IMG/VR virus record: IMGVR_UViG_3300029476_000065
Strand: one strand, 5' to 3'
Length of the DNA: 5,224 nt
Origin: a virus
Taxonomy: Duplodnaviria > Heunggongvirae > Uroviricota > Caudoviricetes
Numbering within the stretch: the first letter of the stretch is position 1; each line of letters opens with the position of its first letter. Shown in pieces: positions 4,512-4,598 of this stretch. The translations under genes were made by a program, and so were the position numbers. The notes below the pieces were generated by a model that was not told the DNA's origin, did no database searches, and saw nothing but the letters and a program-made list of their open reading frames with translations.

Positions 4512-4598
4512 TGGTGGGGAGTGATGGAGTCGAACCACCCGAGTCGCAATGACAGTAGATTTACAGTCTCCCCCGCTACCTCTACGGACTAACTCCCC
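4512..4598 (-). tRNA. tRNA-Tyr (anticodon GUA)-like type II gene with imperfect anticodon and D stems; possible pseudogene
   Basis: 87-nt reverse complement with acceptor GGGGAGT/ACTCCCC, T arm GGTGG-TTCGACT-CCATC, anticodon loop CTGTAAA, long variable arm, discriminator A and CCA. The anticodon stem has a G-A mismatch and the D stem needs a G-U pair and a 3-nt linker. Confidence 0.5.

Follow-up and report, generated by a model that had tools for sequence, protein, structure and literature searches.

A probable accessory tRNA-Tyr(GUA) gene with a rare anticodon-stem allele in a D6/P1-like phage-plasmid

The window, that is, the whole stretch of 5,224 nucleotides analysed here, carries at positions 4512-4598 of the minus strand a gene that is best explained as a genuine accessory tRNA-Tyr(GUA) of a D6/P1-like phage-plasmid, drawn from a family shared among phages, distinguished by a rare derived G at tRNA position 28, and serving to offset depletion of tRNA-Tyr; we consider this explanation, taken as a whole, to be probable. 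The gene is already known and routinely annotated, and its sole specific feature is a rare single-base allele of uncertain consequence. The finding is thus an ordinary one, since the gene is annotated and, apart from one seldom-seen base substitution that causes the mismatch, is perfectly paired.

Architecture of the tRNA-Tyr gene

On the minus strand, ARAGORN places a tRNA-Tyr(gta) gene precisely at 4512-4598; it is an 87-nt class II tRNA with A73 and an encoded CCA, and the same identification is given by Rfam RF00005 and by identity to the PGAP-annotated tRNA-Tyr of plasmid pCDF6_3, which is 100% identical to the window copy. Covariance-model scoring, for which the earlier note had asked, yields 35.1 bits on RF00005, above the gathering score of 29 (E = 1e-4 when all families are searched with the whole window), with an alignment that is full-length over model positions 1-71; the neighbouring tRNA-Asn and tRNA-Thr of the window reach 75.5 and 72.5 bits on the same model. 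Read 5′ to 3′ on the minus strand, the RNA opens with GGGGAGU and the connector UAGU, continues through the D arm (CCGU, AGAGGUA, GCGG), a single G, the anticodon arm (GGAGA, CUGUAAA, UCUAC), the variable region UGUCAUUGCGACUCG (15 nt with a 3-bp stem) and the T arm (GGUGG-UUCGACU-CCAUC), and closes with ACUCCCC, which forms the 7-bp acceptor stem with GGGGAGU, followed by A and CCA. The anticodon GUA occupies 4562-4564 (minus strand) within the loop CUGUAAA, which supplies U33, A37 and A38 according to ARAGORN, Rfam and the sequence itself. The identity elements recognized by TyrRS are the GUA anticodon, the long variable arm, A73 and G1-C72. The class II tyrosine-tRNA features are all present in the sequence and in the covariance-model alignment, namely GUA in a 7-nt loop, U33, A37, the long variable arm, A73 and G1-C72. 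Direct reading of the sequence thereby bears out the earlier description of an acceptor, T arm, anticodon loop, long variable arm and CCA.

The anticodon stem is GGAGA/UCUAC and falls short of a fully paired 5-bp helix at a single position. G28 (4570, minus strand) stands opposite A42 (4556, minus strand), its unpaired partner, and the pair carries the non-standard (NC) mark in the Rfam alignment; because these two bases face each other, the mismatch is real. The initial observation of a Tyr-GUA tRNA with one non-pairing anticodon-stem position, wedged between two intact tRNAs, is accordingly confirmed by ARAGORN, Rfam and the sequence. The D stem, which had been described as marginal, is instead a clean 4-bp helix, CCGU/GCGG, that follows the 4-nt connector UAGU in the covariance model and in the minimum free energy (MFE) fold of the allele with U at position 28. 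The apparent weakness is a register effect that arises because ARAGORN forces the standard 2-nt connector (positions 8-9); in the covariance-model alignment, UAGU appears as two inserted nucleotides. The ARAGORN cloverleaf with a 2-nt connector was rejected, given that its D stem is poor and that the register of the covariance model and the MFE fold is conserved and includes a compensatory change: the 4-nt-connector register is common to all 24 distinct family members compared, with one such change among them.

Gene neighbourhood and backbone

Five tRNA genes are found by ARAGORN on the minus strand of the window, for Asn, Tyr, Thr, Ser and Ile2. The tRNA-Tyr gene has as its upstream neighbour tRNA-Asn(GUU) at 4604-4678, which differs from the P1/D6 allele by 11%, compensatory changes included, and as its downstream neighbour tRNA-Thr(UGU) at 4432-4507; both assignments rest on ARAGORN, Rfam and alignments. 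A 5-nt A/T-rich spacer, AUUUA (4599-4603), separates the CCA of tRNA-Asn from tRNA-Tyr, and a 4-nt spacer, AAUU (4508-4511), separates the CCA of tRNA-Tyr from tRNA-Thr, an arrangement of CCA followed by a short AAUU or AUUUA spacer that also flanks tRNA-Tyr in rV5-like, T-even and T5-like phages. The remaining two genes, both called by ARAGORN on the minus strand, are tRNA-Ser(UGA) at 3891-3977 and a CAU-anticodon tRNA at 2830-2905. The latter is labelled Met by ARAGORN and tRNA-Ile by PGAP, and its P1 orthologue is trnI (tRNA-Ile2, lysidine type). The three tRNA genes of P1 (trnA-Asn, trnT-Thr, trnI-Ile) occupy the same operon position as their counterparts here, with tRNA-Thr 97% and tRNA-Asn 89% identical and the CAU tRNA corresponding to trnI. 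P1 nevertheless lacks tRNA-Tyr and has an Asn-CCA-AU-Thr junction, whereas the window has five tRNAs. A virulent-phage origin of the Asn allele linked to tRNA-Tyr was rejected, as this allele is 89% identical to the P1 tRNA-Asn and only 62-72% identical to the tRNA-Asn genes of lytic phages.

The window corresponds to the pacA-lpa ... tciA/tciB ... tRNA segment of a D6/P1-like phage-plasmid and is 94.5% identical to phage D6 across 97% of its length; many Escherichia, Shigella and Salmonella plasmids also match it, at up to 97.9%, and the best matches to the whole window, which are 97.6-97.9% identical, carry no tRNA-Tyr. Pfam domains in its ORFs comprise Lpa, TerB (TciA), DUF3927 (TciB) and a Tad2-like anti-Thoeris domain. 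Within this backbone, pairwise alignment delimits a 695-bp module at 4103-4797, made up of Asn-Tyr-Thr with flanks, over which the window and the P1-like plasmid pCDF6_3 show 100% identity. Outside the module the flanks diverge: the window is D6-like, with pacA-lpa next to tRNA-Ile, and pCDF6_3 is P1-like (SPFH, tRNA-Ile, dnaB/ban). Such identity over 695 bp despite diverged flanks indicates that the module has moved between backbones by recombination with the mismatch already in place.

Several further features of the segment were recorded. A 191-aa ORF at 1801-2376 (minus strand) contains a Tad2-like (Thoeris anti-defence 2) domain, PF11195, at 37.7 bits; because this ORF follows the tRNA-Ile gene on its downstream side, the tRNA block adjoins a candidate counter-defence gene. 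A hairpin resembling an intrinsic terminator, GCCCATCTTCGGGTGGGC followed by a T run, is located at 5145-5162 on the minus strand, about 470 nt upstream of tRNA-Asn and at the edge of the region annotated as dicF-like in P1; no sigma-70-like promoter was found between this hairpin and tRNA-Asn, which counts against the explanation favoured here. Directly 3′ of tRNA-Thr, a long hairpin at 4335-4431 (minus strand) folds at -40.8 kcal/mol (z = -4.8, none of 200 shuffles as good), is thus very stable and contains the T-arm-like motif AGGGUUCGAAUCCCU. The region is also conserved in P1, enclosed there by the plp ORF, which is annotated on the other strand. This element looks like a tRNA remnant or a tRNA-like element, and an Rfam search of 4300-4440 gave tRNA-like matches only, all of them insignificant.

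The tRNA-Ser(UGA) gene has tRNA-Sec as its best Rfam match (43.5 bits, below the gathering score of 47), ahead of the general tRNA model; tRNAscan-SE made no amino-acid call for its counterpart in the D6 record, and the rV5-like phage MiataMamis has a tRNA-Ser(UGA) downstream of tRNA-Tyr whose best match is again tRNA-Sec (39.4 bits). Between tciA and tRNA-Ser, positions 3661-3781 (minus strand) give a partial match to STnc100, a gammaproteobacterial sRNA family, at 39.4 bits (gathering score 47; E = 3.7e-6; model positions 31-147). The tRNA-Thr of the lineage that carries G28 has a C25U change at position 4483, which turns G10-C25 into G10·U25, and scores 72.5 bits on Rfam against 74.9 in relatives.

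A shared phage tRNA-Tyr family

Searches with the 87-nt tRNA-Tyr matched 1,525 phage records; in 1,359 of these the match extends over 80% or more of the query, with 80-93% identity. Identity reaches 93% in rV5-like phages, 91-92% in the T-even relatives RB14 and T6, 84-89% in Klebsiella T4-like phages and Phapecoctavirus, and about 80% in T5-like and FelixO1-like phages. The window gene displays the family signature, which consists of a UA+NN(N) connector, a CCGU...GCGG D stem and a UUCGACU T loop, and its variable arm, UGUCAUUGCGACUCG, is identical in P1-like, rV5-like, T6/RB14 and T5-like PNJ1902 copies. By these sequence criteria the gene can be assigned to a tRNA-Tyr family of T-even, T5-like, rV5-like, FelixO1-like and P1-like phages. 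The window tRNA-Asn and tRNA-Thr are only 72-80% identical to their T-even counterparts, which makes tRNA-Tyr look like the more recently exchanged cassette.

The family cloverleaf is maintained by compensatory evolution. Covariation was examined over 24 distinct family sequences and 24 pairs (576 cells), with 500 shuffles and slid partners as controls. Standard pairs occupy 99.5% of the 576 cells, against 84% in the shuffles and 43-56% in the slid controls; double-sided, compensatory changes occur in 16 of the 24 cloverleaf pairs, and none of the 500 shuffles comes up to these figures. Among the 24 sequences the D stem does not vary except for one compensatory change from C-G to U-A. At column 28:42 the pair is C-G in 13 sequences, U-A in seven and G-C in three, the one remaining sequence being the window, which is also the only one of the 24 with an anticodon-stem non-pair.

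Every family member has a connector of 4-5 nt, including that of T6, whose tRNA is expressed (PMC13096335). The combination of this connector (UAGU at 4587-4590 in the window) with a D loop shorter than that of host tRNA-Tyr is a trait of the family, and it is probably the reason why some phage records label the gene tRNA-OTHER or tRNA-Pseudo-GTA. The T6/RB14 (Tequatrovirus) gene resembles the window gene at about 91% identity, with the same length of 87 nt, a 4-nt connector and corresponding D arm, variable arm, T arm and acceptor stem; it differs in its anticodon stem, GUGGA/UUCAU, which is fully paired with two wobbles, and in its location, a SegB-associated cluster of a virulent phage with other neighbours. 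The T5-like PNJ1902 gene matches the window gene exactly in its variable and T arms, and its D stem, CUGU/GCAG, is compensated, but the T5-like copies that were compared are only about 80% identical to the window gene, with different acceptor and anticodon stems. In T5, tRNA-Tyr lies in a region of about 24 tRNAs and has a strong dedicated promoter. The variable loop sets T5-like tRNA-Tyr apart from host tRNA-Tyr (PMC13096335, PMC11555353).

The E. coli tRNA-Tyr genes (tyrU/tyrT/tyrV) share with the window gene the loop CUGUAAA, A73, CCA and a class II variable arm with a GUC...GAC stem. By contrast, tyrU, the host copy that was read, departs from the phage family in every one of its signature features: it has a 2-nt connector, a 3-bp D stem, a 9-10-nt D loop and a shorter variable loop, and it scores 53.4 bits on Rfam against 35-43 for P1-like alleles. 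At E ≤ 1e-5, blastn with the window tRNA-Tyr matched no chromosomal place in E. coli genomes, the host tRNA-Tyr being missed because it is too divergent.

Occurrence in phage-plasmids and rarity of the G28 allele

The same tRNA-Tyr gene, at the Asn-Tyr-Thr position and with 95-100% identity, is found in P1-like and other phage-plasmids of Escherichia, Shigella and Salmonella. It is present in 269 of 5,426 RefSeq complete E. coli genomes, always on a plasmid and never on the chromosome, and in 272 of about 769 E. coli records with the Asn/Thr block, which is roughly a third. All 42 E. coli RefSeq plasmid entries among the matches listed bear the PGAP label tRNA-Tyr, and the record of phage vB_EcoM-Ro157c2YLVW annotates tRNA-Tyr(gta) between Thr and Asn. 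The P1 and D6 genomes have no tRNA-Tyr gene, and their tRNA-Asn and tRNA-Thr lie 2 nt apart (P1: CGCCA-AU-GCCGG); tRNA-Tyr stands outside the core P1 tRNA set, defined by a gene at the orthologous P1 site. The earlier proposal of an unannotated fourth P1 tRNA therefore does not hold, given that the gene is absent from P1 and D6 and is annotated as tRNA-Tyr where it is present. The closest backbone relative, pLD93-1-90kb, also lacks tRNA-Tyr and has Arg-UCU followed by Thr at the site. The slot upstream of tRNA-Thr takes one of four forms (Asn, Arg, Asn+Tyr or Arg+Tyr), and tRNA-Tyr is an accessory gene in this variable cassette slot of P1/D6-like phage-plasmids. A search of one literature collection found no paper on tRNA-Tyr in P1-like phage-plasmids.

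In many relatives, tRNA-Arg(UCU) replaces tRNA-Asn(GUU) upstream of Tyr/Thr (219-295 in relative L005 and 5111-5187 in L193, corresponding to window 4604-4678). The one Arg copy that was read, from L005, shares its acceptor stem, T arm and G73-CCA with the Asn gene and differs only in the D loop and anticodon arm, so that by its sequence it resembles a remoulded tRNA or a chimera.

The majority of P1-like copies have the perfect anticodon stem GUAGA/UCUAC, nearly all of them with U28-A42, as opposed to GGAGA/UCUAC with G28·A42 in the window and in pCDF6_3. The G28 allele is present in 4 of the 272 E. coli records, namely pCDF6_3 and three plasmids of 92,675 bp from pig isolates. Two IMG/VR contigs carry G28 and 58 carry U28 (2/60); both G28 contigs are pCDF6_3-like and distinct from the window. 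The exact window allele was not among the matches in PLSDB or the phage collection, and a scan of JGI metagenomes yielded no G28 copy. Exact-pattern scans of GTDB species-representative genomes found neither allele, an absence that is uninformative about the rarity of G28 because the common U28 allele is absent too. Among 64 copies, the common polymorphisms are confined to unpaired positions (A/G and U/C in the D loop, position 26 and the variable loop), and stem-breaking alleles are rare: G28·A42 in four copies, A49·C65 in two and A3·C70 in one. Taken together, the alignments indicate that G28 is a rare, derived single-base change from U28.

In favour of an artefact in the window, G28 departs from the common allele by one base only. 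An error of sequencing or assembly nevertheless has practically no standing here and is effectively refuted, for an identical 321-bp block occurs in four separate complete E. coli assemblies and G28 recurs in the two IMG/VR contigs; error is excluded because independent assemblies share the base.

Predicted consequences of the G28·A42 mismatch

With U28 replaced by G, the Rfam score is 35.1 bits, down 8.4 bits from 43.5. According to ViennaRNA, the MFE structure of the U28 allele is the cloverleaf, at -29.2 kcal/mol; for the G28 allele, all anticodon arms compatible with a cloverleaf (a 1x1 mismatch, a bulged A42 or a 3-bp stem) reach only -23.9 to -24.9 kcal/mol, a loss of about 4.5 kcal/mol, and the MFE structure is a non-cloverleaf fold at -29.0 kcal/mol. 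The pair probability of the anticodon stem falls from about 0.57 to 0.07. Rescue of the G28 anticodon arm by a bulged A42 with a G28-C43 pair, or by a 3-bp stem, was also considered and rejected, as none of these arrangements was better than about -24 to -25 kcal/mol. Tertiary contacts, Mg2+ and base modifications play no part in the thermodynamic models, which suggest weakening and leave inactivity unproven. G28 is most likely a hypomorphic or nearly neutral variant and not something new.

Since the predicted MFE structure of the G28 allele is not a cloverleaf and its stem probability drops, the allele could nevertheless be inactive. The precursor would then misfold and be poorly processed or degraded, and G28 would mark the first step in the pseudogenization of a dispensable accessory gene. 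The loss of about 4.5 kcal/mol predicted for every cloverleaf-compatible anticodon arm, the competing fold at -29.0 kcal/mol and the 8.4-bit drop all point in this direction, as do the rarity of the allele, the many relatives without any tRNA-Tyr and the weakening C25U change (G-C to G·U) in the adjoining tRNA-Thr of the same lineage. Mutants of su+III tRNA-Tyr with anticodon-stem mismatches accumulate little mature tRNA, which likewise counts in favour of a null allele. Against it stand the limits of the thermodynamic models just named, and the fact that a single substitution leaves the other conserved tRNA positions, the anticodon loop, A73 and CCA intact and the score still above the Rfam gathering threshold; the allele also persists unchanged on two backbones whose 695-bp module is 100% identical. 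We regard a null allele as unlikely, although it retains appreciable weight. The earlier suggestion of a pseudogene in progressive decay goes further and finds no counterpart in the comparisons: the gene differs by one substitution from an intact common allele and scores above the gathering score, and its orthologues are intact, nearly all with U28-A42 and with common polymorphisms in the loops only.

It is also conceivable that G28 is adaptive, a broken or reshaped anticodon stem escaping a host nuclease that recognizes or cuts this stem while decoding is kept, but this is very improbable. Precedents for such escape exist: a phage tRNA-Thr resists P2-OLD through an altered CNG motif and a lost anticodon-stem pair (PMC12445682), and the tRNA-Lys, tRNA-Thr and tRNA-Asn of T5 are substituted at the site in the anticodon stem that is cut by PARIS AriB (PMC12409363). 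The presence of G28 on two distinct backbones could be read in the same way. However, its frequency is only about 1.5-3%, three of the four E. coli records are pig-isolate plasmids of the same 92,675-bp length, the precedent loses the terminal 27:43 pair and not the internal 28:42 pair, and no other member among the 24 family sequences has an anticodon-stem mismatch. In addition, the known tRNA-Tyr nucleases, retron-Eco7 PtuAB and Septu EcB88, leave the anticodon stem intact and cleave in the variable arm (PMC13096335), which is unchanged in the window gene. In its most developed form, the change from U28 to G would be an escape mutation against an OLD/PARIS-like Toprim nuclease or a novel tRNA-Tyr nuclease, with UAY decoding kept, and the slot holding Asn or Arg with or without Tyr would be a counter-defence cassette that tracks the tRNA nucleases of local hosts; this elaboration, too, seems highly doubtful.

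Proposed role in tRNA-targeting conflicts

The following mode of action is proposed for the gene. The Asn, Tyr and Thr tRNAs would be made as one polycistronic precursor, in which RNase P would cut each 5′ end and the short A/U spacers would be trimmed back to the encoded CCA. The resulting tRNA-Tyr, which presents A73, G34-U35-A36 and the long variable arm, would be charged by host TyrRS and would top up or replace tyrosine decoding when host tRNA-Tyr is depleted or cut by nucleases of the Septu or retron-Eco7 PtuAB type. The idea, raised earlier, that the sequence might be a processing spacer finds no support: expression and activity are documented for the T5 and T6 members of the tRNA-Tyr family in which it falls (PMC11555353, PMC13096335).

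Counter-defence is the likeliest role by inference only, and the analogy behind it is drawn from the virulent phages T5 and T6, not from P1-like elements. T5-like phages evade retron-Eco7 by means of their own tRNA-Tyr, the PtuAB effector of this system being one that degrades tRNA-Tyr (PMC11555353). Septu EcB88 cleaves tRNA-Tyr within its variable arm, at C48/A49; the T6 tRNA-Tyr is visible on northern blots, and raising its dosage restores infection in the face of Septu (PMC13096335). In a screen of 245 coliphage tRNAs for suppression of PtuAB, GUA tyrosyl-tRNAs were enriched (PMC12445682). Thr-UGU and Asn-GUU, which accompany tRNA-Tyr in the block, also match known nuclease targets: Thr-UGU is a target of both PARIS AriB and P2-OLD and Asn-GUU of PARIS, and both are secondary PARIS targets (PMC12409363, PMC12445682). 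The window tRNA-Tyr keeps GUC|A, the sequence cut by Septu in the E. coli and T6 tRNA-Tyr (PMC13096335), and for this reason it is not obviously nuclease-resistant.

A functional tRNA-Tyr could alternatively serve codon-supply tuning, or compensate for general host tRNA turnover during lytic growth, and have no part in counter-defence; we think this rather unlikely. E. coli has three tRNA-Tyr genes and a single Tyr isoacceptor, which counts against tuning of tyrosine codons; the three host genes also weigh against the main explanation. The presence or absence of the gene and the swapping of cassettes (Asn or Arg, with or without Tyr) between backbones that are nearly identical are more like accessory, conflict-driven content than an adaptation to codon usage, and the status of Thr-UGU and Asn-GUU as secondary PARIS targets, with Thr-UGU a target of P2-OLD as well, argues in the same sense (PMC12409363, PMC12445682). 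Codon supply is, on the other hand, how phage tRNAs have classically been explained (PMC13096335 and PMC11555353 discuss this), and the retained GUC|A cut sequence speaks for it as well.

As a discovery the finding is of low importance, the gene being routinely annotated and its family having been studied in T5 and T6. Two modest points of interest remain. Temperate P1/D6-like phage-plasmids carry, in the form of an exchangeable cassette, the very tRNA-Tyr with which virulent phages counter Septu and retron-Eco7. The G28/U28 pair offers a natural one-base allele pair for gauging the in vivo cost of an internal anticodon-stem mismatch. More broadly, the cassette would extend the tRNA arms race to plasmid-prophages, and the tRNA might also protect the lysogen.
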